Shown in pieces: positions 7,935-44,766 of a DNA stretch of 64,000 nucleotides. The position numbers were made by a program, and so were the translations under genes. The notes under the pieces are model-generated. The model saw nothing but the letters and a program-made list of their open reading frames with translations, had not been told where the DNA came from and did not search any database. This DNA is from Botryllus schlosseri (Eukaryota): the NCBI GenBank assembly GCA_051294905.1, contig CM119372.1, positions 23,624,001-23,688,000 on the forward strand. Reading direction: 5' to 3'. Positions within the stretch are counted from its first letter, which is position 1; the number at the start of each line of letters is the position of its first letter.

Positions 7935-9952
7935 CAGGGCTGTGGAGTCGGTAAATTTTACCACCGACTCTGGCTCCGACTCCGACTCCACACATTTTCA
8001 ATATACCGACTCGGACTCCGACTCCTGAGTCTAAAAACGTACCGACTCCGACTCCGACTGCTGGGTCTTTAAACGTACCGACTCCGACTCCCGACTCCGA
8101 CTCCAGCATTATTACCAATTTACTTCGAAAATTATATGCCACATTGTCAACATATGATTAACGGTGGCATGCTAAATTGTTTCATTGTGGCACAGCTCGA
8201 ATTATCCACTATGCAATTAACATGAAAGAAAGATTTCCTAAATATCCTTCCTTTTTCAAGTTTTTATAACATGGACTAATATCCACTAATATCCTGAAAT
8301 GTATGAATCATTCAAATATGGCAGATATCCAATCCTGTACAATAAAAATGTAGATAAAAATCCAAGTGTAGCTATTGTGTATGAGTCAGCAACTAATAAA
8401 GAGATTGAACTCACTAATTTTGTCATTGCACACTATACTGATTACAAGCACACACACTCGTACTACTAATAGACATTGGTCATTAATGGAATTTAGTTAA
8501 GTAGTCAAAGACCATAGCCTATGTCTAGTCTACATGTACTTAGTCAAGTATTCAAGGACTAAGACTTGTAGTCTTTCTTAATCATTTGTTCGACCCAAAC
8601 AGCTGAGCTACACTACAAATATTTTTAATTTTGTCAAGTGGGAAGCATCGTTTGGCCATATTTACATCATTTTTACAATTTTACATAACCAGCCGATGCA
8701 TTTGCTCTGCAACAGTATCATGGTACAATTCCAAAAATTGCATCAATTTTGACTGCATCGCGAAAACGCATATTGCGATTTTCTTCCCCAGTGCAACTGA
8801 GTTGCAATTTGCAAATAATGTCTAATTTTATCTATATCAGGGCAAATTTTCCGGCCAAAGGGACACATGAGATTTACGAACCATTGCGCGGGCAACTGGA
8901 ATGTTGATAACCTTTTTTTAGTCGTCCGATATCCTATAGAAGCGAACCGAATTAGGTAACATTGCAAACAAGACTTATATTAATACGCTCTAAAATTGAT
9001 AACAATATGTCATGCAACTGTGCAGTGCGCAACAAGGCCCTGGTCGCGCGAAGTGCGAAATTTTGTTTCAAGATAATGACTGAATTATATCAATAAATAT
9101 GTTGCTAATATACATTGGGGGTCGCATCTGTATACCACTGGGCTCATTTGGCAAGGACAGGATTATTCGACGTTTAGACATAGCAAAATCGACGGTATCA
9201 GTGAACATGCCTCTATTATTTTGTGCAAATGCTTTGTCGACGATCTCGCTGCGAGTGCACAACCGAAGCCGCATGTTGAACGACACGTTATTACCTAATT
9301 GCGAATATAGTTAGACTCAATTCTGTGAATATTATGTATTTATAAATTTCAGAAAGGGGCTCAAATACTGAATGCAAGAAATCTAGTGACAATGAATCAT
9401 GCGAAGTACCGAGAAAAATTTCAAGTCAAATAAATCCGCTATGAAATATTCTACTTTATGGTCATATACGAAGATCTGCGATAAATGTGGCTGGCACCTG
9501 GATACGTCAATGCGTCAGAAATGTTATTTTAGTCATCATCTAATGTCGCAATCATGCTAATCAAATTTTGGTTGGCCTTACAATTTTACCTGATGTCATA
9601 AATAATTTCGAGAATTACCTCGCAGGCCACACCTAGCCTTATCGTGTGCCAAATTTGGCCTGTGTGCCACGGGCTGGTCGCACCTGATCTGTATGGTTAT
9701 TAATAACAGTGATTGGTGGTACATAAAAATTCTATTGAAAACTCTTTGAAAGCAAATGTTTTCATGATACAGAAGTTGGAGTCGGAGTCGGAGTCGAAGT
9801 CAGGGTCATTCTCACAAACTCCGACTCCGACTCCAGTCAGTATTTTCCCCACGACTCCGACTCCGACTCCAGCTATTATAGTTTTCACGACTCCGACTCC
9901 GACTCCATCAAGCGAAAATTACCCCGACTCCGACTCCGACTCCACAGCCCTG
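7935..9952. mobile_element. hAT-type element 'C' with (CCGACT)n subterminal arrays
   Basis: TIRs CAGGGCTGTGGAGTCGG / CCGACTCCACAGCCCTG. Perfect TSD gttacgac (7927-7934, 9953-9960). Confidence 0.9.
8838..9686. mobile_element. hAT MITE 'D', nested in C
   Basis: Ends CAGGG...CACCTG. TSD atctatat/atctgtat. Homologous along its length to 29998-30676. Confidence 0.8.
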
Positions 9953-9960
9953 GTTACGAC

Positions 9961-10496
9961 TAGGGCTGGGCAGTGGGCACAATGATTCGAGTACTCGAAT
10001 CTGAATCGAGTATTAATTTTAATGATTCGAGTCGAGTAGTAAAAGTCGATTTTTTTGAGTACTGAAATTATACGCTCCTCACCACTGAAAGTTGATTTAT
10101 CAACGAGGAGTTTATCAACGATCAACGAGCTTATGCTAATTTCACTGTTGAAGCCTTGGAACCTTGGTTGGCCGTATCGTAGCATACGAAACATAAAGTA
10201 CAAAGCTACGAACGTTACTGGAAATAGCACATTTCCGAAGTCATGAGCATCCCACAATATTGTCACCAAGTGCAATGAAATCGGTATGGTCGAAAAAAAT
10301 ACCAAAGTATGCTCAATATGATGGATAACAGGCATTATATTCTTTGTGGTCGCTTAAAAGGTACATATTTGAACATTGACAAATAATATTCTGCTATGAC
10401 GTCATAATGAGTGATACTCGATTACTCGACTCGACTCGAAGCATTTTACGTGATTCAGAATCGAATCACTCAGGTACTCGATTTTGTCCAGCCCTA
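9961..10496. mobile_element. hAT MITE 'E'
   Basis: TIRs TAGGGCTGG / CCAGCCCTA. TSD gttacgac/gtaacgac. A very similar inverted copy lies at 41868-42384. Confidence 0.9.
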
Positions 10497-28095: not shown

Positions 28096-29359
28096 TTAGC
28101 TAGTTAGCTATCGAGTTAGAGAGGTCGTCCGTCGTTGTCCCACTGGAGGAGTATGACGTTCTCTGATATCTGTTCGTGAACACGCATCATTGACAAAAGT
28201 ATTTCCTTTCGGTCCCAACTTTTCATATGAAGCCGATTTGACGCGACCGAAACAATTATTGCAATTGCAGTTAGCATGGAATGTATAGTATCAGTGATCC
28301 GGAAGAAAGCGGGGATTATTTACTGTACCCCTGGTCAACCCGACATCCATGTTGCGCGACATATGGACGGGGCTGTGTGCTGTGCACTGTGTAGGCCACT
28401 AATTCTTTGATACCAGGACATCTATGATTCTTTCGTACTTGGTCGACATTGCTATTATGATTCCCGAGCTGCCACTTTCACGTTAGCATGCTGGTCCTAG
28501 ACTTTTTGGAAGACCTGGCATAATCGGATGTGATGGCGATGAATATTAATGACAATAATTAGCATCTTCAAACCATAAATTTACTCTTGTCATAATAAAT
28601 ATCATATGTTTTTCACATCACTTCATACCCGTTTTCAGCGTTCGATACGTCAGTATTCAAATATTTACACAGCCAGTATAGTGAAGGCGGAGCATGGCGA
28701 ATAGCTTCCAGCATCATGTAAACCATCGCCCATCTAAATGTCCATAGGACGGAAATCCCCCAAACACACAGGAATAATGCAGCAATTATGAAAATCTAAG
28801 AAAGTGTGGGGTGTGGAGCCCCCAACTATGTAAGCAGTCATGGTTCAGCGTTAATTAAAACTAACCTTCTGTGATGTCATATGTCCTCGATTCACGTGAT
28901 TTATAAATCAGCAATGGAGATTGAAAATCAAGTTTGATTTCCGTCACCGATTTATACCTCAATTAGTTGATAGTGTCAGAAAGACAAAATCAGTCTAAGT
29001 CTTGAGATATATGATTTACTCCGCATTCTGTCAGGTGACATTCGTTTTGTCCCAGTGCAGCTTGTATGTTATAAGCTGGCTATAATATCGACCGACGCAC
29101 GATAAATACAGCTTTCGGAAAAAAGTGCCAACTCATCTATCTTGATCAAAGCACTGTATTTAATGCCCAGATGATAACATTATATATTAATTCTTATCTT
29201 AGTATACACTAGCAAATGGTAGTTAGGCCTCGAATTTTGGAAGTACCCAATCGCTTATATATCAACACAATGACCAGATATTACAAGGCTCGTAATTATA
29301 TCAGTATATATCCTCATCGCCGATCCCGCTGTTAACGCAAGTAGTATAGTAGATCGCTC

Positions 29360-29990
29360 GTGATGTGGCAGGGGTTCTTATGGGCCCGCTGGTGATGTGC
29401 CTGGAACTCGTGTTGGTGATGGTACCCTTTTGACCCCCCCTTCCGCTCGTGATGTGCCATGTGTTCTTATGGGATCTCTGGTGATGGTACCCTTTCGGGT
29501 ATAGGCTGCGTCGGTGATGTGCCGTGAAAACTCGTGGTGATGATGGTACCCTTTCGGGTATAGGCTGCGTCGGTGATGTGCCGTGAAAACTCGTGGTGAT
29601 GATGGTACCCTTTCAGATATATGCTGTGGTGATGAGGTGCCTATGTGGTGATGATGTGCCTATGTGGTGATGATGGTACCCTTTCAGATATATACTGTGG
29701 CGATGATGTGCCCACGGATTCTTGTGTCGTAGTGAACTAACGTTGTGGATATAGGCCGCGGTGATGAGGTGTCTATATGGTGATGATGGTACCCTTTCAG
29801 ATATATGCTGTGGTGATGAGGTGCCTATGTGGTGATGATGTGCCTATGTGGTGATGATGGTACCCTTTCAGATATATGCTGTGGCGATGATGTGCCCACG
29901 GATTCTTGTGTCGTAGTGAACTAACGTTGTGGATATAGGCCGCGGTGATGATGTGCCTGTCATGTATTCTTACGCGGTCTCTGGTGATTC
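29360..29990. repeat. Left subterminal minisatellite array
   Basis: Repeated GGTGATGATGGTACCCTTTC / GGTGATGTGCC modules, including near-exact ~58-bp and ~184-bp tandem duplications. Confidence 0.85.
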
Positions 29991-29997
29991 TCTATGT

Positions 29998-30676
29998 CAG
30001 GGCTGGCCAACCTTTTCAGCCAAAGGGCCACATTCGATTGACGAACTATTGCGCGGGCCACTGGCCGCGCGAAGCGCGAAATTTTTTTGTAGTTCATAGG
30101 TCAATAATATTGTCACTTCACTATATTGCGGGCATGTTGTATATCGCTGGGCTAAGTTTGCGAGGACTAGGCTATTCGGCGCATGGACATATCGATATCG
30201 AAAGCTGCGACCTACATGCGTCAATCATTTCGTGCCTAGGTTTTATAGTCGACGGTCTTACTGCGAGTGCAAACGCAATGTCGCATATGTTGAACGACAC
30301 TTTGTCTTCTAATCGTGAATATAGTTCGACTCAATCTGATACTTTGAGTATTCTTCCATTTTCACAAAAGGGCAACAATATTGAAAACAAGAAATCGAGT
30401 GACAACATGTGGCGGCAAACTTGTAGAAAATTTTTACCCTTGATAAATCTATCGCAAATTATTCTGCTTTAGTGTACGAAGATATACCAATATGTGAATG
30501 GCTGATGGATCTGTCAACGCGTCGGAACTGATATTTTAGACATCACATCTCAAGTGTTGCGGCCAGACTAATCAAATTTTTGGTTCGCCTTGCAAGTTCA
30601 CAATCTGTGCAATCCATTTTTGATGATATTAGAAATTTCGGAAATTACCTCGCGGGCCACAGGTTGGCCGGCCCTG
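29998..30676. mobile_element. hAT MITE (family D) inserted in the left arm
   Basis: CAGGGCTGGCCAACC / GGTTGGCCGGCCCTG. Perfect TSD ctctatgt. Confidence 0.92.
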
Positions 30677-33600
30677 CTCTATGTGTTCTTATGAGTGCGG
30701 TCGTGATTCGTACTTTCAGGCATCTCTCGCGCGGTGTTGAATATGTACGAGTCACCAACAATAACCGCACAAACGGAAACGTGGTTTGTTGTGAGGATTA
30801 CGCAGCGGGTGCGACCTATATTTCGAATGACCTGCGCGCTGAATTGTTGCCCGGGCAGCTGTTTTGTGCTACTATCGTATCGATTATTACACTAATCCAG
30901 TCAGTGCGAAATAGTTTGCTAAATCTAGGAATCACTTCCAAGGTAATATTTTGGTAATTAGTTTACCGCAGAGCCGGCGTAGACGGTTATTCGAATATCA
31001 ACAATAACCGCGTTCGCATAGTAACACTCTAAAAAGGTGTGAAATATTTGTAAAAATCCTACGACCACTCACAAGATAACACATCAGAATAGTCATCTCT
31101 CGTGGTTTGGTGTTACAAAGGTAGGAATTATAAGTAATATTTTGGACGACAATGATATATCGTTATTCTTATGGACGCGGCGACATGATAACGTTACAGG
31201 TATAGGCTGTGGTGGTGATTCGCCATGTGTTCTTATGGGTGCGCTCGCACGTCGTACTTTCAAGTATAGGTATCTCTCGCATGTCGTATTGGAAACTCGT
31301 GTTGGCTCGCTCACGCGGTGAAATTTTAGTAATCAGTTTGTCACAGAACTTGATTTCGCTGGTAAGATTTAACAAGTAACGAATAACAGACCGCCAGTGT
31401 CGGTAACTTGAATAGCGACAAATTGTCACTTATTTCCGCTCTAACCCTAATCCTCTGTGAAGTGAACGCTTATTCAACAGGATGTGATATAATTTTAAAA
31501 TCCGACGACCACTCACCGAATAATGCTTCAGACATAGCAATCCCTCATGCCCGCTCACAAGGTAATATTTCGGTAATTAGTTTGTCCCAGAACCATCGCA
31601 GACGGTGATTCGAAAACCAACAATTTGTCACTTGCCCGCGATCGCTATATGTTTCACGCCTCTCGAATAGTGGCTGACTTTAGTTGCGTGATAAGATCCA
31701 TGAAAATATTCAATCAATGTGTTAGTTTGTCAACTTGAAATGTAACTTACTACACAAATCAAGTTGAATCGTATTTGAATGTATTGATTCGACCCAACTC
31801 AAATCCTTTGACAAATCCTATTAACGCGATCTGTTGAATCGAACGTAACCTGAATATTACTGACGCCAACATTCACCCGCATCGGATCATTCACACATTC
31901 CACGCCGCTGTTTTAACACTTATAGAATCAATACCAACTATCTCTAACCCGATAATATTCAATCATTTTGGTAATTTGCCAACTTTAAATCCATTCGCGG
32001 GATGTACTAAAGGTAAATCCAAATAATCCAGAATGAAATATTTGGACTTTGACATAGTCTGAATTGAAATATATTGACAAACATGACTACCAACTTTGAT
32101 CCAGTCACATTTCAAGATCATACTTTGAAACAATCCTTGAAACTAACAACTCTATTCACGACTGAGTTTTCCGTTTATCAGTTTCAGTAAATACTATCGC
32201 GATATTTTAATGTGTTACTACACACAATAGAATCAATCAATGAAATAACACCTGTTGTAAATATTTCTAACTTGACAACCACTTGTGCATACCGTGATCA
32301 AGTTGCGACGCGATGAGTTAAATCAGGATATTTCAATCTATTTGTCGAAACCTTCAACAAACTATCAGGTTATTTTTTGTTGTAATCGAGTGAACGGAAA
32401 TAGTATTACGTCTCGATCTTTTAACATCTTACCACACCCCAAAGAGTAAAATACAAAAAAACCTTGTCAAATCAATCCGTTTGTAACTTACCCAACCAAA
32501 GCAAAAAGTATTCTTATGAAAAGTAGACAAGACTACGTGAGTAATCACCACAATCCAAAATCCATAGCAAGTTCGGTTGCATTCATAGTCCACCAACTCG
32601 TATTTTTATTCCACTAAAAGTCGTTACTATTCCGCAAGACAAAGAAATTACTATGTGGTATATTTTGTAAGACAAAAGTAATTACTTCCCAGTGTCGGCG
32701 ACTTGAGATTAACATAATATGTTTGAGTATACGAGATTTGACAGTCTGACCATCGTAGTTGAGAATTCATTTCTTACAATCGAACACAGGTGTTATATCA
32801 AAAGTTATCATACTGTAAACATAAGGATTGACACATTGATTTGACGTATGTAATAGTTGATCACGACTTGATTATTAAATTATTCGCGTTAATTAGACCC
32901 GCGTTGTGTTGAAAGTTATGACAGTAACAAACTTTTCGGAAACGTTGTTATTAACATATTGATTTGTAAAACTATACTTGTCTGAAATGTTATTGATTTG
33001 GAAGATATTCCGTGTTGGTACAAATCACTCTGCGTATTGCGGATATCAGAAAACATTTTACAAATGTAATTGTTTCCAGTACCCAAGACTAAAGATGAAA
33101 CAACAATTTCGTTTGCTGATTAACAACCGGTACAATACTTTATCATCATAAGCCGCGGTGAGAATTGAAACACTTTCGCGCATTACCCGGTGTCAAGATA
33201 TCACACTAGGTGAATTGACATACCGCCGCTTGAATAATACCTAATCCGTTCGCACCATTTCACATACTTTGATCATTACAAAAGTAAATTGTGATATGTT
33301 TGTTAGATGCATCCAATTCAGTTAGAAATGTCTGGTGCACAACAATCGTAATATCAAAAAAGTACTTGCTACACTGTTATTTGCTAAACGTGTTTTGCAT
33401 TGTGGTTCATTTGTAGTATTGATTGAAATTGTTCTTGAACCCTCAAATAATAATTCCTGACATGAAACCAAGCCGCTGAAAGTCGTTACCATCACGAAGA
33501 TACAATGTGTACGATGTTTGTCAAATGTGTCCTACCTGGCCAACAGAAAACAATTTTCACTCACTCGAAATGAAACCAATGTGATGGTCTCCATTCGATA

Positions 33601-35299
33601 TTTTGTTTGTGTCAAATACTTTGCAATGAACACATTTGCGTGGTTGAGCTTTACATCATCAAGCTGTTATTTGTAAATCAAGATTTCGGTAAACTTGTAA
33701 ATGTATCGTTTAACTAACCGACATTTAGTGATTGGGGAACATACCAGACGATACACATCCATCTCCGAAATACTGCATTGATCTTAATTTCCATCATCGT
33801 GATAATCGAAGTACATTTCTTTCGAATTCGTAACAACCGACTATGACATGATAAATTTTTGACAAGTTATGCTTAGAAGATTGGTTGCATATCGCGAAAA
33901 AAATAATATACCACTCATATTGATACTGTTACTCCATTGATCGATATTTTCAAACGAGTAAAATTTATTACTTGAGTTTCCCCGCTTAATGTAAATGAAA
34001 ACTCAACCGTCTTTTAACATCACAAAGACATTGATAAAAAGTAGGCAATCAAACACAACACTTTGTACGACACTAATTATTGTTCCACACATCTCATTTC
34101 ATACTAAGTGTATACGAAAGATATTCATGACACATGAAAATATTCCCATGCTACAAACCTGTACAATGATTGGCGGTGCTTTCAAACTGTTTCGATATCA
34201 CAAGAACTTTATTGTCTGAATGGGTGTTCATGTATCTTAATAATCAAATAGTTCAACACAGAACTAGTACGAACAGAAACATCAGAGAGTTGTTTACAGA
34301 AAAGTTTGTATATGTGCACAATATGCGAATACCATGTGTAAGTCCAGCACAATTGCGGTATCCATCCGAGTTTAGTTAACACAAATTTATTACAACGGGG
34401 TCACGTAAACTTTCGTGAAAGAAAAGCATACTCACTTCCAGAGGGTTATGTCAATGCCATAGCAGTACCCCAACAAGAAAGTACATATGTTTTCTAGTCA
34501 CGGTCCTTACATCTTTCACATAGATCAATCTACTTTGCTAACGAAAAGTGCTGAGTCATCACATGATTGCCCTCACAACAAAACAGCTAGTAGATATTAT
34601 CATACAAAAATATTCCTAACCCTTTGCGCACCAGTGACAAATCATACAACAAACATTTTTTAGGAGTCGAATTGTTGTTCAGTGTCAAGTCTACCTGTTG
34701 AAACGTACATTAAAACAACACAGTCACAATTCAATTAAAACCACGAATCTATTTTCATTTCGTCACATACAGAAAAATAAATTTTCTTTCCCCAACACAT
34801 ACTTGTAACCAATCGCTTTCATTAAACACACAACTCCATAAAAGTATTTACTTTCTACAACATAGACATTCCGATGTAGTCAAGAAATATTTTTATTAAT
34901 CAAAATCATCGACTTCTGTTCATGGTGTTAGTGTGTGCATGTCATACCTGTGGGCCTCCGTATTAAAATGGACACGACACAACTGAATGTAAGGAGATAG
35001 AAGTCTATCGCATAGCTTTACATGTGGTCTTCGCTACGGTTTCAAAAAAACGAATCATCTCTTTTGCATTGATCTAGACCGAGCAAGTTAGTTAATGACC
35101 ATGATTGTGTTTGTCATATGCGAATGATAGGGTTACTGTCAAATCTACATACAACAACCTTCTGACGATCATAATAGCAATTTCATTTTCCGCCGCTTCG
35201 TAACTGTATACCCCCAACTCGGCTTTTTTGTTCATCGACAGCTGCGTTTAACAAGACCAACGACACTGAACCCACGACGTTTACCTATGTAAAATTACC

Positions 35300-35595
35300 A
35301 CTTTCACTTGGCAGTCCGTCGTTTACCTGGCTAAACATATCATTTTCACTTGGAAATCTATTTTTTCCCAGAGTAAGAAACCTTTTTCATTTGGAAATCT
35401 ATTTTTTCCCTGGGTAACAAACCTTTTTTACTTGGAAATATATTTTTTCCCCGGGTAACAAACCTTTTTCGCTTGGAAATATATTTTTCCCTGGGTTACA
35501 AACCTTTTTCACTTGGTGATCCGTCGTTTACCTGAATAAAAATATCATTTTCCTTTGGAGATCTGGCGTTTACCCAGTGTAACAACACATTTTCT
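35300..35595 (-). repeat. 41-42-bp tandem array, inner end of left arm
   Basis: Units like TTTTTCACTTGGAAATCTATTTTTTCCCxGGGTAACAAACC. Inverted copy of 36498-36790. Confidence 0.85.
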
Positions 35596-36344
35596 TTAGC
35601 TTGTCGTCGCTAGAGTCGCTAGAGTCGCTTGGCTAGAGTCGTCGCATGATGAGACTTGAGAACATGAATTTGTTCTCCATGATGTTTGTACACCGACACA
35701 TTGTATGTACACCTCGTTTACGCGAATACTTGTGAACAATCGTGACGTTACTTGTATGTGATGGTGTATGCATTGGTATTTTTCATGGAGACAAAACACG
35801 GTCTGTAACATGTTTACTTGAATATTGGTCGTTGGTTCATGAGTGAATATCCGGATCAGGCCCCCACACACTTTCTCATATTAGTGATCCGGTTTCAGCT
35901 GACTGGAGCGACATGTATTGATCAGTAAAGACACAATATAGTAAACAGACCTGAGGAAACTCGCAAGTAACCCGGAGTTGTTAGCGCGATGGGGAACATG
36001 AATCCATCCGTTTTCCGAATACCATTATCCGTGTATCAACCAGTTACCAAAGTCGAGGAGGTGTTTTATTCAGACATTTTGACTCTGGAAAATCCAAAGC
36101 ACGAACCCGGACATCACGGACATATCGGAAACCTCTTTATTCGCCAATTCCGAAAACATACATGTCGATGTACAACAGCTCATTGTTATTGTATGTGAGT
36201 AACCAATGATTTTGATGGGATGCATCAGAGCAAGTGAATATTTGATTAGACAAATGTATCGGAGTCGTTGTTGGTGTATATTTTGTCACTGTCCGTTGTA
36301 ACAATATACAAAAATATCAAATTGTCTGGTGTGGTTGTCAGTTT

Positions 36345-36790
36345 TCAAAACGAAAATGATATTGTTACTCGGGGAAAGATAGATTTCCAAGTGAAAAACG
36401 GTATTGGTACTCAGGTAAATGATAGTTTCCAGACGAAAAGGGTTTGTTACCCAGGAGAAAATGATTAGTTACTCTAGGTAAAAGCTAGATGACCAAGAGA
36501 AAATGTGTTGTTACACTGGGTAAACGCCAGATCTCCAAAGGAAAATGATATTTTTACTCAGGTAAACGACGGATCACCAAGTGAAAAAGGTTTGTAACCC
36601 AGGGAAAAATATATTTCCAAGCGAAAAAGGTTTGTTACCCGGGGAAAAAATATATTTCCAAGTAAAAAAGGTTTGTTACCCAGTGAAAAAATAGATTTCC
36701 AAGTGAAAAAGGTTTCTTACTCTGGGAAAAAATAGATTTCCAAGTGAAAATGATATTTTTAGCCAGGTAAACGACGGACTGCCAAGTGAA
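36345..36790 (+). repeat. 41-42-bp tandem array, probably a former 14-aa peptide repeat
   Basis: 42-bp units translate as ENDIFTQVNDGSPS-like. 41-bp variants (GAAAAAGGTTTGTTACCC.GGGAAAAAATAGATTTCCAAGT) break the frame. Confidence 0.8.
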
Positions 36791-39700
36791 AGTGGTAATT
36801 TTACATAGGTAAACGTCGTGGGTTCAGTGTCGTTGGTCTTGTTAAACGCAGCTGTCGATGAACAAAAAAGCCGAGTTGGGGGTATATGACTACGAAGGGA
36901 GAGAATGAAATTGCTATTATGAGTGCCAGAAGGTTGTTGTATGTAGATTTGACAGTAACCCTATCATTCGCATATGACAAACACAACCATGGTTATTAAC
37001 TAACTTGCTCGGTCTAGATCAATGCAAAAGAGATGATTCGTTTTTTTGAAACCGTAGCGAAGACCACATGTAAATCTATGCGATAGACTTCTATCTCCTT
37101 ACATTCAGTTGTGTCGTGTCCATTTTAATACGGGCCCCACGTGTATGACATGCACACACTAACACCGTAAACAGAAGTCGATGATTTTGATTAATAAAAA
37201 TATTTCTTGACTACATCGGAATGTCTATGTTGTAGAAAGTACATGATTTTATGGAGTTGTGTGTTTAATGAAAGCGATTGGTTACAAGTATGTGTTGGGG
37301 AAAGAAAATTTATTTTTCTATATGTGAGGAAATGAAAATAGATTCGTGGTTTTAATTGAATTGTGACTGTGTTGTTTTAATGTACGTTTTAACAGGTAGA
37401 CTTGACACTGAACAACAATTCGACTCACAAAAAATGTTTGTTGTATGATTTGTCACTGGTGCGCAAAGGGTTAGGAATATTTTTGTATGATAATATCTTC
37501 TAGCTGTTTTGTTGTGAGGGCAATCATGTGATGACTCAGCACTTTTCGTTAGCAAAGTAGATTGATCTATGTGAAAGATGTAAGGACCGTGACTAGAAAA
37601 CATATGTACTTTCTTGTTGGAGTAGCTGATTTACTGCTATGGCGTTGACATAACCCTCTGGAAGTGAGTATGCTTTTCTTTCACGAAAGTTTACGTGGCT
37701 CCGTTGTAATAAATTTGTGTTAACTAAACTCGGATGGATACCGCAATTGTGCTGGACTTACACATGGTATTCGCATACTGTGCACATACAAACTTTTGTG
37801 TAAACAACTCTGATGTTTCTGTTCGTACTAGTTCTGTGTTGAACTATTTGATTATTAAGATACATGAACAACCATTCAGGCAATAAAGTTCTTGTGACAT
37901 CGAAACAGTTTGAAAGCGCCACCAATCATTGTACAGATTCGTAGCATGAGCGAGTATTTTCGTGTGTCATGAATATCTTTCGTATACACTTAGTTTGAAA
38001 TGAGATAATAATTAGTGTCCTTCAAAAGTAAAACATGTTGTCTTTGATTGCATACTTTTTATCGTTGATCGTTGTGGTTTTGAAAGATGGATGAGTTAAC
38101 ATTTACATATAGTAAGCGGAACAACTCAAGTAATAAATTTTACTCGTTTGAAAATACCGATCAATGGAGTAACAGTATCAATATGAATGGTTTATTATTT
38201 TTTGCGATATGTACCAACCTTCTAAGTAAAACTTGTCAAAAATTTATCATGTCATAGAAAAGTCGGTTGTTACGAATTCGACACAAATGTACTTCGATTA
38301 TTACGATGATGAAAATTACGATCAACGGGGGTATTTCGAAGTGGATGTGTATCGTTTGGTATGTTCACCAATCACTAAATGTCGGTTAGTTAAACGATAC
38401 ATTTACAAGTTTACCGAAATCTTAATTTACAAATGACAGCTTGATGATGTAAAGCTCAACCACTCAAATGTGTTCATTGTAAAGTATTTGAAATAAACAA
38501 AATATTGAATGAAGACCCACTCTTCGGTTTCATTATCAAGCTAGTGAAAATTGTTTTCTATTGGGTGGATATGATTTGTAAAACGATATAGACCGATTAA
38601 GCGACGTTGTTTCATATCCGTCGAGTGAGTAAAATTTCTTTGGAGTTCGGTTCAGTGAGTTAATCGCTAGGGGTTCAATCACATACAAGTAACGTCTTTT
38701 AGTGACAGAGTATTGTGATGACATTTACTTTAGTGAATGACAACGGAAAATTTTTTGATTGCATTGTCGGTGGGTTATACAAATAATTCTAGTACACCTA
38801 ACTATAGGACACATTTGGCAAACATCGTACAAATTGTTTCTTTGTGATGGTAATGACTTTCAGCGGCTTGGTCTCATGTCGGGAATTATTATTTGAGGGT
38901 TGAAAAACAATTTCAATCAATACTACACACAACCAACAATGCAAAACGCGTTTAGTGAATTACAGTGTAGCAAGTACTTCCTTATTGATATTACGATTGT
39001 TGTGCACCAGAAATTTCTAACTGAATTGGATGCGTCTCGCAAACATACCACAATTTACTTTTGTAATGATCAAAGTCTCCTCGCGATATTTTACATTTAG
39101 CACGTTCTATGGAAAGTGTGAACGGAGTTGAGTATTAATCGTGTACTTGGGATAGTGCTTTGATATTAAAGATATATTTTCACACTGTGTAATGTTTCGA
39201 TTCTCTGTTGTGAATACCGACAGTAACGACATTGATGTTAAATCCTCACTCTTGGTCATTGTAAGCGAATCCTAAACATCGCAACAGTCGGTATGGAAAT
39301 CGAACGCATGCATAATTTTAGATAGGCGACACTAACAAGTTTATTACATCCGTGAAATACTCTGAAACGTCGATTCGTGATTGTGTTAGCTATATTCATC
39401 TTCCATATCTGTGGGCACAAAGATTTCTTAACTTTGGTTACAGCTCATTCGTAAGGAATTGTTGCGTGCAATCTAATAAAGCGCAAGTCGAAGACGAATG
39501 ATTTGATTTCAATGAGCTTGAAAGTCCTTTTGTTTTGGTGTTGGGTTTAATACAATTTGTATGACTATAACGAATCCGATTCCAAAAGTGCTATGTTACA
39601 TTTAACAAAAAGTTTGATGACTTGTATTCTGATATTGATAGATGTGAAAAGTAATATGACTAGTTTATAAAATCTCGGTAATGTTCTTTGTCATGTCTGT

Positions 39701-41559
39701 GTTCAACAAATATGCGATCAAGTCTTACCATTCGATATTAACTTTCGAAGTCGACGTAAGCGGTAATTTGTTGAAGTAACAATATCGACGAGTTCAATAA
39801 TATTCCCCATCGATGCATTCGAATAATCTGTCAGCTGCAAGCTGATTAAAAACTTGATGCCGTTTTGTGGTTAACTCAAGTCAGTGGTCGCGTTTGTGTT
39901 GATTTCAGGAATGATCATGACGTGTTGGCTGGGTAAATTAGTTAATGTGGTTGTAACTATGACCGTAAAGAGTTGCTGACATTCCAATATCTTTTACGCT
40001 GTCATATATGGATTCAATTGTGATAATTTAATTCTCAGTTATTGTTCAGACATTCAAATCTCGTATATTCAAAATATAATAGGTTTATGTCAAATCGCGT
40101 ATATGCACCGATTAGTAAATACTTTGTCTTACAGAATAGTAACGACCTTTACCGTTGAATAAAAATTATCGGTCATATGAATACAACCAGGACGAATTAA
40201 TTCAAGTTTGCGAGTTGTAGTGTTATAATCAAGTAAGTGAAAACTATATTTTTAACACCGGTTAATGTTATGAATAATTCTTTTGAGTATGGTAAGATGT
40301 TAAAATTTCTCTTTGACAAACGGAAAGCCAGATCGTGAATAGAGTTGTAATGTTTCATTACTTGTTTCCAATCAATGTGCCTATAATATCGAAATGGTAC
40401 TTGGAAAGATGGTAGTCATGTTTGTTAATCTATTTCAATTCAGACTATGTTAAAGTCGAGACATTTCATTTTGGATTATCTGAATTTACCTTTAGTACAT
40501 CCCGAAAACGGATTCCGACGCCGCACTATAACATTCTTAATAATACAGGTTCGAGGATTTTCATGATAGAGTTGACAAGTGATAAGATGCGTGTCTGTAT
40601 TAAGAGTTTGATTTCAAGTTGACAAAGACAATAACTGTATAATGCACATACTTGTGATTCTTGATTCTTGTAGAGTTATAGTTGGTATTGATTCTATAGG
40701 TGTGAAAACAGCGGCGCGAATGTGTGAATAATTCAATGTGACTGAAAGTCGGCGTCAGTAATATTCATGTTACGGTCGAATCAAAAGATCACGAAAAGAT
40801 TTCTCAAATTAATTAGAATTGTACCGAATTAACACATTCAGATACGAATCAACTTGAGCTGTGTAGTAAGTTTCATTTCAAGTTGATAAATTGACACATT
40901 GCTTGAATATTCGCATGATTCTTATCATACAACTAAAGCCAACCACGTTCCGAAGTGTCGAACATATAGCGACCACCAGAAAGTGTCAAATTGTTGGTTT
41001 ACGAATCCCCGTCTGCGACGACTCTGTGACAAACTAATTACGGAAATATTACCTTGTGAGCGGGCATGAGGGATCGCTTTGTCTGAAGCATTACCCTGTG
41101 AGTGTCGTAGGATTTTAAAATTATTTCACACCTATTTGAATAAGCGTTCACTTCACAAAGGATTAGGGTTAGAGTAGAAATAAGTGACAATTTGTCGCTA
41201 TTCAAGTTACCGACACTGGCGGTCTGTTATTCGTTACTTATTAAATGTTTGAAATCAAGTTCTATGACAAACTGCTTACGAAAATTTCACCGCGTGAGCG
41301 ATCGATATGCCTGTAACACGGAGCCACGAAAGATGGTTATGTCCGAGACATTATCTTGTCAGCGATCGCGGGGTTTTGCAAACTATTTCACACCTATTTG
41401 AAGTGTTAGTTTGTGAACGCGGCTATTGTTGATATTCGTATCGCCGTCTACGCCGGCACTGTGGTAATCTAATTACCCAAACATTACTATGCGACTGATT
41501 CCTAGATTTAGCAAACTATTTTCACGCCTTTTTTGTTGAAAGTACGACATTCCGCCCGC

Positions 41560-42720
41560 AGCCTATACCCGAAAGTACGAATCACCGCCGCACCCATAAG
41601 AATAACGATATATCGATGTCGCGACTATTTACCATACCTGATACACATTCTACATCGTGCGAGAGATGACTATACCTGAAAGGGCGAATCACGACCGCAG
41701 CCATAAGACACCACACGTTTTCAACACCGTGCGAGAGATACCTATACCCGAAAGGGCGATTCATGACCGCACCCGTAAGAACACATGGCGAGTCACCACA
41801 GATCCCATAAGAATACATGACAGGCGAATCACCGCCACCACCTATAGCAAAAAAGGCGAGTCACGACTAGGGCTGGGCAAAATCGAGTACCTGAGTGATT
41901 CGATTCTGAATCACGTAAAATGCTTCGAGTCGAGTCGAGTAATCGAGTATCACTCATTATGACGTCATAGCAGAATATTATTTGTCAAAGTTCAAATATG
42001 TATGCGACCACAAAGAATATAATGCCTGTTATCCATCATATTAGGGATACTTTGCTATTTTTTTCGACCATACCGATTTCATTGCACTTGGTGACAATAT
42101 TGTGGGATGATCATGACTTCGGAAATGTGCTATTTCCAGTAACGTAACTTTGTACTTCATGTTTCGTATGCTGCGATACGGCCAATCAAGGTTTCAAGGC
42201 TTCAACAGTGAAATTAGCATAAACTCGTTGATCGATGATAAACTCCTCGTTGGTAAATCAACTTTCAGTGGTGAGGAGCGTATAATTTCAGTACTCGAAA
42301 AATCGTCTTTTACTACTCGACTCGAATCATTAAAATTAATACTCGATTCAGATTCGAGTACTCGAATCATTGTGCCCAGCCCTAGTCACGACCACGAGTT
42401 TTCACGGCGAATCACCGCCACGAGCTATACCTGAAAGGGCGAATCGCGGCCGCACCCATAAGACACAATGGCACCGTGCCACCCCCGCCATAAGACGCAA
42501 TAGCCGCATGCCAACTCACCCATAAGACATAAGAGCCGCATGCCAACACGGGATTTCGAAGCCGCGTGCGAGCGATCCCTATACTGAAAAGAGTTACCGT
42601 GCGAGAGGGGCCATAAGACGCAATAGCCGCATGCGAGCGGAAGGGGGGGGGGTCAAAAGGGTGGGGTCATCACCCCGGGTTTTCAGGCAGGTCACCACCC
42701 CGCCCATAAGAGCCCTATGC
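41560..42720. repeat. Right subterminal minisatellite array, interrupted by MITE E
   Basis: Repeated CTATACCCGAAAGGGCGAATCAC.ACCGCACCCATAAGA and CCATAAGACGCAATAGCCGCATG modules, related to the reverse complement of the left array. Confidence 0.8.
41868..42384. mobile_element. hAT MITE (family E) inserted in the right arm
   Basis: TAGGGCTGGGCA / TGCCCAGCCCTA. Perfect TSD gtcacgac. Inverted relative to 9961-10496. Confidence 0.92.
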
Positions 42721-43004
42721 AAAAAACGTTAGTTCGCGACCGATCTACTACACTACTGATGCAAACCGCAGGATATGGCAAGTATGATAAACATTCCATT
42801 TAGTATCAACTATAGGTCCAATGCCCCATTAAGCTTATCCAGTGTAACTTAAAACTCTTATAAGCTCGATAATTTGGATCAGGATGAAGATCTTAGGGAT
42901 AGCAGGCCTAATGATGAAGATTTTGGAATCGAAGATGATTCAGAACGTAGAGTAGTCCGTCAAGACAAGTTTAATGATCTGACATAGGCTTTGGGTCTTG
43001 GAAG

Positions 43005-44766
43005 CAGGGCATGGTATGGTATGGTATGGTATGGAAGTATGGTATGGATCGATATTTTGGTATGGAATATGGAACGATGCAAGTATGGTATGGAATGGAA
43101 GATTTCAATCTATGGTATGGAACGACATTTCCATACTTCCATACTTTGGTATTATATACATTTCATCGTGATCTGTGCAAGCTTCATTGAGCGTACGTTG
43201 TTCGCTGTTCACGGAATACGATCTCTTTTGTTATGTGTGAACTATTGAACGCTGTGTTGGAACAAATACACGCTTATGCCTATGCAACGGTTTTTAGGAG
43301 CACCTGGAATGACATGATTTTGTGATGCAATAATGACAACAGTTGTTGATCCGATATTCTACTGAGTCTACTAGACACGATGTCTCCGAGTGTAGTCTAT
43401 CATGTGACGCAATAATTGGTAATGTAGGCTACTCCAACTACCTCATTCCTTGAGTGACGACAGGTTACCAGCAATCATGCTGTAATGTACTAATAGCTCA
43501 ATGTGATTGATAATTACATTTCTTCTGAAACATTGTCCGCCACATTCACACTATTTACATACTGAGATATCTCATTGGTCATATTTCAAAAGCTCTCGCA
43601 TAGGATTATAGATCAGAGAGTGGGGTAGATATAGTTTGAAATTCTCGCCACGCTAACCTCGACCAAATACTGTACTAATAATCACACAGATCGCTGCAGT
43701 ACTGATTACCTGCAGCTGGGATATTTTGTGTATATTATAAATTATTGTGCGAATATTTACTTCAAACTTGCATGTGCCTCATGCCAATGTATCGGAAATG
43801 CGATGATATTTTTATGGAGGGTCCTAGATAACAATCCGCTGACTATCTCATTTTGCTCGCAGAAGCTGTAGACGTACACGGCACCTCACCACCGTGAACT
43901 AAACCTCACCAAAGGAGACTCTGTAAAACTATTACCCGGAATTAGATTCGCACCATGACTGGTTTAAGCAATAATTACACCCGAAATACCAATAATACAG
44001 GTGCTAGAAAAGGTACTTTACAAGGGTTGTAACTAAGTCACAAGGCTCCAAGTCACAAGTCAATCTCACTTTTATTGTTTTGACCCGAGTCAAGTCGAGT
44101 CATTTTCAATTCACTACCGAGTCAAGTCCGAGTCCAAGTCAGCGAGCAGAGGGTCGAGTCCGAGTCATGGTATTATGACTCGGTTCCGAGTCCAAGTCAT
44201 TGTGTTGATTGCTTAATTTCCTGTTAAAGTATTGTTAAACCCGCCTTTTATACCTCTACTTATGATATAAAATGGTTCGCATTTATAGTATATTAATTTT
44301 CCTCACTTTTAGCAGTTTCTGGTCGCATTGTCAAGTACTAGTACCAATAGACGAAATATCGATAGTGTGGTTACTTAAATATTCTTCGAAATTACAATGA
44401 AATGTCATTCTTGGCCGTCTGAGTCTCGAGTCATATGACTTGGTTCGAGTCATGCGCAATGACTCGAGGCCAAGTCGAGTCAATACACATGTTGACTCAA
44501 GTCGAGTCGAGTCATTTCCGTATTTTGAGAAAATGACTCGAGTCAAGTCGAGTCATCAGAAAATCGTGACTCGAGTCGGACTCGAGTCATTACGACCCTG
44601 TACTATATTTATGATATTGAAGTATTTGAAAGTATGGAATATGTATCAAGTATGGTATGGAACAATGTTGGTATGGTATGGAAAATTGCAAGTATGGTAT
44701 GGAGAGAGTAAGGCAAGTATGGAGTATGGAAAATCCTCGTTCCATAATATACCATACCATGCCCTG
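43005..44766. mobile_element. hAT-type element with (GTATG)n subtermini
   Basis: CAGGGCATGGTATGG / CCATACCATGCCCTG. Perfect TSD cttggaag. Confidence 0.9.
44022..44600. mobile_element. hAT-type MITE with (GAGTC/GACTC)n arrays, nested in 43005-44766
   Basis: AGGGTTGTAAC ... ATTACGACCCTG. Decayed TSD tactttac/tactatat. A similar array occurs at ~25610-25780. Confidence 0.7.

Follow-up and report, generated by a model that had tools for sequence, protein, structure and literature searches.

A probable rearranged member of a high-copy family of giant-palindromic Maverick satellites in Botryllus schlosseri

Vertebrate Mavericks are reported to end in an (AGT)2 or (AG)3 motif, to carry terminal inverted repeats and to be flanked by 6-bp target duplications; their reported length is 12.7–24.6 kb, with inverted repeats of 46–1,447 bp (mean 402) (PMC8097293). 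The element described here occupies positions 29340–42757 of a 64,000-nucleotide stretch of Botryllus schlosseri DNA (the window). It is very probably a rearranged and probably immobile member of a high-copy, non-autonomous family of giant palindromes, which are satellites of resident Maverick/Polinton elements. Like Mavericks/Polintons (polintoviruses), the window element has (AGT)2 ends, inverted termini and a length inside the reported range, and its family makes 6-bp duplications. Unlike Mavericks, the satellites lack genes for polymerase, integrase, ATPase, protease and capsid, as searched in the window copy, and their inverted repeats reach 6–7 kb, of which ~5 kb per arm is non-Maverick by comparison with aut1, an autonomous element from this genome (below).

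Snap-back or copy-back defective viral genomes are described as symmetric palindromes that retain the parental replication ends and depend on the parent (review, PMC13506859; AAV snapback genomes, PMC8235507). The satellites share with them a highly symmetric palindrome, little or no coding capacity, parental ends and a probable dependence on the parent. In contrast, the snap-back genomes of these accounts form anew at each infection and are parental throughout, whereas the satellites are heritable, integrated and diversified, with hundreds of terminus matches, mostly non-parental arms and a small frame of their own in the centre. Long inverted repetitions are also present in the DNA of incomplete adenovirus particles. 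Foldback transposons (Drosophila FB, Galileo), members of the MULE or P superfamilies with 9- or 7-bp duplications, have long inverted arms that contain tandem repeats, are mostly non-coding and are mobilised in trans. The satellites have similar mostly non-coding arms with tandem repeats, but their duplications are 6 bp throughout and their ends are those of integrase-bearing Mavericks. MITEs, which measure tens or hundreds of bp, have only the ends in common with an autonomous partner, which they outnumber. The sharing of the satellites with their autonomous partner is likewise limited to the ends, but they stay mostly near helper length, which suggests a constraint such as packaging. A literature search, judged by titles and the openings of abstracts, found no published account of such a palindromic family.

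The window element opens with AGTAGTATAGTAGATCG and closes with the reverse complement of AGTAGTGTAGTAGATCG, and AGTAGT stands at both inverted termini, as the initial annotation had described. The flanking hexamers, aacgca and gatgca, which it had called similar, agree at four of six positions; the other 13 elements with both ends located all have a perfect duplication. Inverted homology was recovered at the positions given in the annotation, in five pairs: 30909–31117/41312–41521 (80.6%), 31307–31946/40671–41301 (84.9%), 31988–32180/40314–40514 (79.9%), 33266–33534/38805–39076 (90.8%) and 33540–35595/36498–38564 (92.9%, rising to 97–98% closest to the middle). It does not run continuously for ~6.25 kb inward as had been proposed: 3419 nt of each ~6.26-kb arm can be aligned, at a mean identity of 89.7%, and two segments, one on each arm, have no partner (Table 1). 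The window copy is thus without the near-full-length symmetry of a snap-back genome, which is present in the other copies (97.9–99.9%). Apart from a few short blocks and the terminal 17 nt, the outer ~1.5 kb of its two arms consist of unlike repeat types. Between the arms lie 902 nt, in agreement with the proposed spacer of ~0.9 kb; however, this gap is not the loop of a palindrome, as 35635–36340 is a stretch of inner right arm that has 99% identity to inner arms elsewhere in the family and lost its partner through a deletion.

Table 1. Features of the window copy (window coordinates).
Feature	Position	Strand	Remarks
Left flanking hexamer aacgca, one half of a candidate target-site duplication	29334..29339	.	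4/6 match to right hexamer
Left terminus AGTAGTATAGTAGATCG and subterminal repeats, GGTGATGTGCC-type motifs	29340..29997	+	95–98% identity to the ends of copy C11b
Tandem arrays of 59, 19 and 184 bp	within 29340..29997	+	left subterminal region
Nested 679-bp hAT-like MITE, ends CAGGGCTGGCCAA...TTGGCCGGCCCTG	29998..30676	.	
8-bp duplication CTCTATGT of the 679-bp MITE	29990–29997 and 30677–30684		
Left arm	30677..35595	+	32090–34100: 97–99.6% identity to A-type copy C5:818600-834500
Left-arm-only segment, without partner on right arm	32181..33265	+	inverted pairs in A-type copies elsewhere
41-bp tandem repeat array, left arm near inner end	35343..35516	.	
Unique deletion junction: 39-nt filler, local repeats of GTCGCTAGA-like sequence	35596..35634	.	
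Right arm, inner part, unpaired	35635..36497	+	35635–36340: 98.8–99.6% identity to A-type inner arms
Right arm	36498..41859	-	A-like to B-like sequence change at ~37840–38590
41-bp tandem repeat array, right arm	36577..36750	.	degenerate 42-bp repeats at 36343–36595
Right-arm-only segment	39077..40313	+	98.4–100% identity to B-type copy C8:26212800-26228400; inverted pairs elsewhere
Nested 517-bp hAT-like MITE, ends TAGGGCTGGGCAA...TTGTGCCCAGCCCTA	41868..42384	.	very high copy number
8-bp duplication GTCACGAC of the 517-bp MITE	41860–41867 and 42385–42392		
Right terminus, AGTAGTGTAGTAGATCG inward, and subterminal region, GCATGCGGCT-type motifs	42385..42757	-	differs from left end; nearest end type, aut2
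Right flanking hexamer gatgca	42758..42763	.	

In this genome, the same termini occur on two autonomous elements, which supports the assignment of the ends to Polintons/Mavericks; both contain a pPolB match, and one also an integrase. The first, aut1 (C1:5923771-5942033), begins with the same AGTAGT end and has a perfect 6-bp duplication. Pfam was applied to this autonomous element only. It encodes an integrase in an open frame (rve and chromo, E 2.7e-16), a polymerase of 1214 aa (PF03175, E 5.5e-8) and an A32-like ATPase (a weak match), and the nearest clusters of a 432-aa frame carry a DJR-like domain, a lead towards a DJR capsid. The second, aut2 (C2:33149836-33166020), has the same end and, again, a perfect 6-bp duplication. 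Across the genome, 34 of the 38 pPolB matches scored have no stop codon, and potential helpers with open genes are present. No sign of these functions was found in the window element itself: 0 of its 99 frames of at least 50 aa reach the Pfam cut-off, with no match to PF03175, rve, capsid, ATPase or protease. When it was searched by tblastn with the aut1 open frames of at least 70 aa, matches came solely from frames inside the aut1 terminal repeats, and the aut1 polymerase and integrase gave none. The initial annotation, which had recognised no pPolB, integrase, ATPase, protease or capsid motif, was right in this respect.

The satellite ends are collinear with the terminal repeats of aut1 and aut2 over ~140 nt, with the first 17–28 nt in common, and an alignment of 11 ends contains 42 invariant columns. 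Homology between the satellites and aut1 is limited to the outermost 1.1–1.4 kb per end, and the remainder matches nothing in aut1. Because ~5 kb per arm has no detectable Maverick (aut1) origin, the satellites can be called derivatives with respect to their ends only. The commonest end type is built of GGTGATGTGCC motifs, and aut1 and aut2 bear other motif flavours. Judged from the sequences, the satellites probably depend on Mavericks for their movement.

The 17-nt terminus, with at most one mismatch, occurs 367+384 times (751) in the genome, compared with 5+14 for the reversed control, and the terminal 300 bp has at least 116 matches (40 scored of 1871 candidates); these copy numbers are lower bounds in which satellites and autonomous elements are counted together. 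Twelve other copies were fetched, and all 12 are giant palindromes, each with two 6–7-kb arms that are near-perfect reverse complements (97.9–99.9% arm-to-arm identity over 4.5–7.0 kb). The satellites stand at many sites, each with its own target duplication, which is a perfect 6 bp in all 11 with both ends located. Palindromic copies with 6-bp duplications, for which the annotation had proposed a search, were thus found, and the duplication it had expected is perfect in the family and in both autonomous elements, but not in the window copy. Copy size is mostly ~13–15 kb (range 7.5–20.8 kb among the fetched copies). The proposed near-genome-length unit agrees with this clustering near Maverick length, but the window copy is an unlikely working unit, since its hexamers do not match, its ends are of different types and its centre is missing. 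Between the arms, 8 of the 12 copies have the same kind of unique centre (760–953 bp in seven; interrupted and 2.5 kb long in C11b), with one conserved 93-aa frame. Differences between copies number 1217 on both arms versus 51 that are arm-specific or other, and therefore the arms evolve together; inner arms are 93–99% alike between copies.

At least two subfamilies contributed to the window copy, a mosaic in which one forms the left arm and another the outer right arm and in which the two ends are of different repeat types. A block-by-block comparison revealed that its separate blocks are each 97–100% identical to different family copies. The left-arm-only segment has 39 other genomic matches at 90–98%, at least 12 of them as +/- pairs, and the right-arm-only segment is found in other copies in inverted pairs, one member on each arm. 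The arms therefore belong to different subfamilies and, contrary to what had been assumed, are not copies of one another. A unique deletion of ~1.9 kb, whose junction holds templated filler, took out the inner part of the left arm together with the entire centre and its 93-aa frame, and the canonical centre (~0.9 kb) is absent from this copy. Of the 39 best matches elsewhere in the genome, none crosses the 35595|35635 junction; contigs of runs X15 and X18 have loose ends at 35635, and a piece in X16 starts there.

The initial annotation had proposed that one end of a Polinton-like genome was copied back on itself. As an event at or just before the window insertion, this can hardly be correct. 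The Maverick termini and near-palindromic layout agree with it, as does subfamily C9a/C10a, in which both arms carry 813–949 bp (89–92%) of the unique subterminal region at the right end of aut1, an arrangement that would fit such a copy-back origin. However, the architecture is common to all 12 other copies, with perfect duplications in the 11 with both ends located, and therefore the palindrome was inherited and did not form locally. The window arms, moreover, match other copies better than each other, and the element holds no Maverick coding remnant. Different flanks and duplications exclude the other copies as segmental duplicates of the window locus. It is also very improbable that the family is an ordinary foldback DNA transposon (e.g. 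MULE/FB-like or P/Galileo-like) with a transposase encoded elsewhere and Maverick-like ends by chance. Its very long inverted arms, subterminal tandem repeats and almost complete lack of coding capacity would suit such an element, and the genome does contain other DNA transposons (the hAT-like MITEs). But the collinearity with autonomous Mavericks extends far beyond the first 6 nt, the duplication has the same length as theirs, and one subfamily carries unique Maverick subterminal DNA in its arms. Further, no transposase-like frame was found in 13 copies, as searched by Pfam on the 99 window frames and four frames of two other copies, and by lists of frames of at least 150 aa in the remainder.

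For the hybrid structure of the window copy, we give nearly an even chance to two neighbouring insertions that were joined by unequal recombination or deletion. The window copy may then derive from two insertions, an origin that the initial annotation had itself named as contrary to its proposal. It is possible, if tentative, that co-replicating satellites recombined before integration and that two mutations in the flanks followed. Because there is a target-site preference for KRYGYW (34 flank matches; control, 0), the partial agreement of the hexamers is weak evidence either way. A search for an empty site of the window insertion found none. An artefact in which two palindromic copies were mis-joined through their common inner arms during assembly is improbable. 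The abundance of the family, the similarity of the inner arms between copies and the unequal hexamers speak for it, and the contigs compared are all short, with none spanning the element. Against it, the contigs of the assembly are chromosome-sized, which suggests long reads; the filler at the central junction is templated, as is usual in genuine repair; and an X1 contig contains the left junction without differences, though it reaches just 28 nt into the element.

In the mechanism that we propose for the satellites, the integrase of resident Mavericks would act on them in trans, and the protein-primed polymerase and capsid of Mavericks would probably serve them as well; the preserved length of the family, near the genome size of the helper, suggests packaging. 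During propagation, the identity of the arms might be kept up when a displaced single strand folds back on itself as a hairpin that is corrected or copied, or by arm-to-arm gene conversion in master copies. Concerted arm evolution points to one of these two steps, and in-place gene conversion alone could explain it with no snap-back intermediate. A joint reading, which we regard as doubtful, is that the satellites are heritable palindromic genomes of full genome length that the helper polymerase copies starting at the common ends, that use the capsids of the helper and that renew their arms through a hairpin of the displaced strand in each cycle. The length of ~13–15 kb would then follow from packaging in helper capsids, the 93-aa loop protein would be the sole conserved cargo, and the flavours of end repeats would follow helper lineages. 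The window copy would be a recombinant between lineages, and satellite lineages would therefore meet and recombine. If true, snap-back defective interfering DNA would have an integrated counterpart that Mavericks support.

What is known of the replication and movement of Mavericks/Polintons comes mainly from inference on their genes. Natural elements in which the cis-acting ends alone are retained show what the helper machinery requires, a part that MITEs and defective interfering genomes have played for transposases and viruses. Here the common part is narrowed to the outermost 1.1–1.4 kb per end with its collinear terminus, in which the lineage-specific repeat motifs look like candidate binding sites; the family also has one small conserved gene. 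It is a large source of long palindromes, and therefore of instability, in this genome. With its central deletion and hybrid arms, the window copy exemplifies the fate of such palindromes after insertion.

Each arm of the window copy also harbours one MITE. The 679-bp MITE is missing in copy C11b, and contigs of three runs contain joints without it (29987/29989 to 30677/30682). At the 517-bp MITE, the joint from 41858 to 42384 occurs in contigs of all four runs.

The left end of the 13.4-kb window element lies at position 29340, where it reads AGTAGTATAGTAGATCG, and the right end lies at 42757 as the reverse complement of AGTAGTGTAGTAGATCG; both inverted Polinton-like termini are thus placed exactly where the initial annotation had put them. 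The hexamers flanking the element, aacgca on the left and gatgca on the right, are similar as described, with 4/6 positions equal. The inverted homology that had been proposed to run about 6.25 kb inward is present in the individual pairs (see table), but it is patchy, and 3419 nt per ~6.26-kb arm align, at 89.7% identity. The segments 32181–33265 and 39077–40313 have no partner on the opposite arm of the window element, and its outer ends agree over 17 nt and a few short blocks and otherwise carry differing repeats. None of the 99 frames of at least 50 aa passes the Pfam cut-off, in agreement with the earlier failure to recognise coding motifs, and Rfam and tRNA scans of window 29000–43100 returned no family and no tRNA.

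The genome (495.5 Mb, 219 contigs) was searched for related ends and arms; match counts, for which the best 38–40 candidates were scored per search, are lower bounds. The terminal 300 bp has at least 116 matches (best 40 of 1871 candidates scored), and, with one mismatch allowed, the 17-nt terminus is present 367 times in forward and 384 times in reverse orientation, compared with 5 and 14 for the reversed control. The first 100 places listed include 35 candidate pairs of neighbouring +/- termini, 15 of which are spaced 13.0–14.7 kb as computed from their positions. Twelve other copies were examined, chosen as ten terminal-300-bp matches, one 20.8-kb terminus pair and the two nearest relatives of arm-specific segments, with one choice sharing no more than family membership with the terminal-300-bp set. 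Each of the 12 is homologous to the window element and forms a giant palindrome, with an arm-to-arm identity of 97.9–99.9% over 4.5–7.0 kb. The A-type relative (on C5) and the B-type relative (on C8) have a single end within the stretch examined. The search for palindromic copies with 6-bp target-site duplications of their own was successful, as all 11 satellites with both termini located carry perfect ones (cacaca, caccgg, cgcgag, gactag, gacgca, gacgtg, cgcggc, cacaac, gaggtg, gatggc and gttgtt). The palindromic layout is therefore inherited within a mobile element and did not arise by a local accident or an error of assembly. The initial observation is correct for the most part, but the single snap-back event proposed for the locus was wrong in scale: the locus belongs to a family of palindromic Maverick satellites, of which it is a hybrid and damaged member. 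Among the papers listed by full-text searches, none describes a palindromic, foldback or non-autonomous Maverick/Polinton derivative family in its title or the opening of its abstract. The family has a target-site preference, with 34 termini adjoining a KRYGYW hexamer (GACGTA, TACGTT, GACGCA and similar), against 0 for the control pattern; uniform hexamers would give no more than about 6. In copy C2a the right terminus is doubled (L034:6302 and L034:7323, 1,021 bp apart) with the same flank after each, which is a local duplication across the element end.

Copies diverge from one another by 5–25%, while the two arms of each copy are near-identical. Over a ~1.1-kb inner-arm segment, 15 pairwise comparisons of six copies gave 1217 differences shared by both arms versus 51 that are arm-specific or of other kinds. 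The second arm may be renewed from the first during propagation; when a palindrome replicates by protein-primed strand displacement, the strand set free would fold into a hairpin, which could be corrected or copied. In-place arm-to-arm gene conversion in master copies is a possible alternative source of the arm identity. MITE insertions mirrored on both arms, which would be a sign of large-tract homogenisation, were looked for and not seen, an uninformative result.

The Polinton link of the termini was borne out by two autonomous Mavericks with the same end and perfect duplications. An 18.3-kb terminus pair (aut1, C1:5923771-5942033), through which the polymerase was found, has the end AGTAGTGTAGTAGATCGCTCGTG as in the satellites, the duplication gccgag, and terminal repeats that align over 443 nt at 99.5% plus a 196-nt block at 96%. 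Its open frames stand in a row on one strand and include an integrase with rve and chromo domains (E 2.7e-16 and 4.7e-9), a 1214-aa polymerase frame matching PF03175 (E 5.5e-8) and a frame with weak similarity to A32-like ATPases. The protein-atlas clusters nearest to a 432-aa frame carry a DJR-like domain in 14–30% of members (score 0.98), which makes this frame a DJR-like candidate as a lead only. A subsequent protein search of the genome with the aut1 polymerase yielded at least 38 matches (best 38 of 438 candidates) at 92–100% identity, 34 of the 38 being stop-free. One polymerase match is enclosed by the second terminus pair, aut2 (C2:33149836-33166020; duplication taggct). The (AGT)2 end motif and perfect 6-bp duplications are common to these elements and the vertebrate Mavericks, for which Barreat and Katzourakis (PMC8097293) also give terminal repeats of 46–1,447 bp and sizes of 12.7–24.6 kb.

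To what extent the satellites consist of Maverick sequence was assessed with blastn of aut1 against all 13 of them. The matches are confined to the terminal 1.1 kb on the left, 1.4 kb on the right and one 127-nt island; nothing in the ~16-kb interior of aut1 matched any satellite, and the remaining ~5 kb of each satellite arm has no match to aut1. Copies C9a and C10a contain, on both arms, 813–949 bp (89–92%) of the unique region inside the aut1 right terminal repeat, which fits an origin of their arms by the copying back of one Maverick end. Both arms of C9a and of C10a keep an intact 214-aa frame, which shares 89% protein identity with a shorter, 121-aa open frame in the right subterminal region of aut1. 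The nearest protein-atlas clusters contain OB-fold nucleic-acid-binding families (scores 0.93–0.95); the relationship is a lead only, and the frame may encode a single-strand DNA-binding protein retained by some satellites.

The first 140 nt of nine satellite ends and both aut1 ends were aligned, and 42 columns are invariant among these 11 ends. The collinear blocks are AGTAGT...GATCG, TATGGG, AAACTCGTG, TTTTGA-C7-T and GTGTTCTT. Between them, in the first 140–200 nt aligned, stand motifs that are repeated within an end and whose flavour depends on the lineage (see table). The satellite flavours match in part those of different autonomous lineages, and the window copy has one flavour at its left end and another at its right. 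These motifs look like candidate lineage-specific binding sites.

Between the arms, 8 of the 12 other copies share a homologous centre (the centres of the A-type and B-type relatives lie outside the DNA comparison). Seven of these centres measure 760–953 bp and are 85–94% alike, one being interrupted by an insert, and that of C2a is about 75% alike; two other copies have a different, 330-bp centre. A 93-aa frame whose start is conserved lies in the shared centre; it is absent from the window and is open in 9 of the 10 copies compared, among them some with only 60–65% protein identity. A crude codon-position count (36/33/39) had suggested that the frame is non-coding, which was overturned by a codon-aware comparison of 10 copies, divergent ones included: its pN/pS of 0.49 is the lowest of six frames (0.57–1.54 for the other five), and the three codon positions show 729/487/880 differences. 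From 5.8 billion proteins, a profile search retrieved five unnamed proteins of 90–93 aa on ~1-kb contigs (E 8.6e-52 to 1.8e-38), and Pfam gave no match. Of five structure models only one, with eight strands, is confident (pLDDT 74.4); its best matches, alpha-crystallin-type beta-sandwiches, are sub-threshold (Foldseek E 0.025, Z 5.5) and too weak for a fold assignment. Central stop-to-stop frames of 152–167 aa in other copies, present in several frames, were dismissed as junk translations.

Features of the window element and of related copies (window positions unless a fetched sequence, L0nn, is named).
Feature	Position or motif	Strand	Remark
Inverted pair	30909-31117 / 41312-41521		80.6%
Inverted pair	31307-31946 / 40671-41301		84.9%
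Inverted pair	31988-32180 / 40314-40514		79.9%
Inverted pair	33266-33534 / 38805-39076		90.8%
Inverted pair	33540-35595 / 36498-38564		92.9% (97-98% adjoining middle)
hAT-like MITE	29998-30676		perfect 8-bp duplication
hAT-like MITE	41868-42384		perfect 8-bp duplication
214-aa frame	L021:1362-2003	-	
214-aa frame	L022:5042-5683	+	
214-aa frame	L027:1131-1772	-	
214-aa frame	L028:5742-6383	+	
214-aa frame	L041:7821-8183	+	partial
93-aa frame	L043:6609-6887	-	
93-aa frame	L036:44-322	+	
93-aa frame	L037:6930-7202	-	
93-aa frame	L046:7502-7774	-	
93-aa frame	L033:6916-7188	-	
93-aa frame	L048:7429-7695	-	
Terminal motif flavour	GGTGATGTGCC		most satellites and window left end
Terminal motif flavour	GCACATCGTA		aut1
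Terminal motif flavour	GGTGAGCGGCT		aut2
Terminal motif flavour	GCATGCGGCT		window right end; nearest to aut2

Judged by the closest relatives of its blocks, the window copy is a mosaic. Segments 32090–34100 and 35635–36340 are 97–99.6% identical to the A-type copy (C5:818600-834500), 39090–40340 is 98.4–100% identical to the B-type copy (C8:26212800-26228400), and 29340–29840 and 36590–37090 are 95–98% identical to copy C11b. Elsewhere, inverted pairs are formed by the left-only segment (+/-) and by the right-only segment (-/+); thus, in the subfamily to which it belongs, each arm-only segment is found on both arms. The right-end type is also found at both ends of other 12–17-kb elements. With blocks from different subfamilies, the low arm identity therefore reflects subfamily divergence and not age. 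The canonical centre is missing from the window copy. In near-identical relatives, the equivalent of 35635–35999 belongs to both arms, at a spacing of about 1.0 kb, and that of 35500–35595 is found about 500 bp farther from the middle. Of the 39 best other genomic matches, none crosses 35596–35634. The deletion, ~1.9 kb in the coordinates of one relative, took away the inner left arm together with the centre and its 93-aa frame. At this site, a 39-nt filler repeats adjoining GTCGCTAGA-like sequence and resembles the product of templated repair. The two inserted MITEs have relatives elsewhere in the window: a second copy (94%) of the 517-bp element lies at window 9974–10496, with 6880 first-look candidates for the family in the genome, and a 76% relative of the 679-bp element lies at 9236–9392.

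Among the 14 elements with both ends located, only the window copy has flank hexamers that do not match. Two later mutations in the 12 flank bases are unlikely, because the window blocks are 97–100% identical to their relatives, and the KRYGYW target preference means that two independent sites could resemble each other. An inversion was rejected: each of its partner junctions (TGCGTT or GATGCA beside a terminus) was seen a single time, on contigs C11 and C7 rather than the window contig C2, at about the chance frequency given the target preference. The non-matching hexamers, the identity of the blocks, the target preference and the lack of inversion partners on the same contig therefore lead us to favour an origin of the hybrid from two adjacent insertions that recombined or lost the DNA between them by deletion. 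The formation of a recombinant ahead of integration ranks somewhat lower. A mis-join in the assembly is improbable, even though the locus is covered only by short contigs, from four runs, among which no element-spanning piece was found.

The flanks were also compared with other sequences. The element-free joint of 29339 to 42758 is not among the 15 joints listed, beside which there are 223 more. No paralogous empty site was found; the left flank is single-copy, and on the right some 240 nt of unique sequence precede another repeat. A contig from a second individual (run X15) stops at 29338, at the element boundary, and differs at 13 of 499 positions over window 28840–29338; the left flank is highly polymorphic. 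The repeat on the right (window 43000–43357) is a separate high-copy one with at least 40 copies at 89–94%. Directly adjoining the element on its left, 30 nt (29310–29339) are 100% identical to L045:301-330 (G000:C6:682913-682942). This site is followed at a distance of 106 nt by a family terminus that abuts inner-arm sequence, and a copy of the nested-MITE sequence precedes it by 107 nt.
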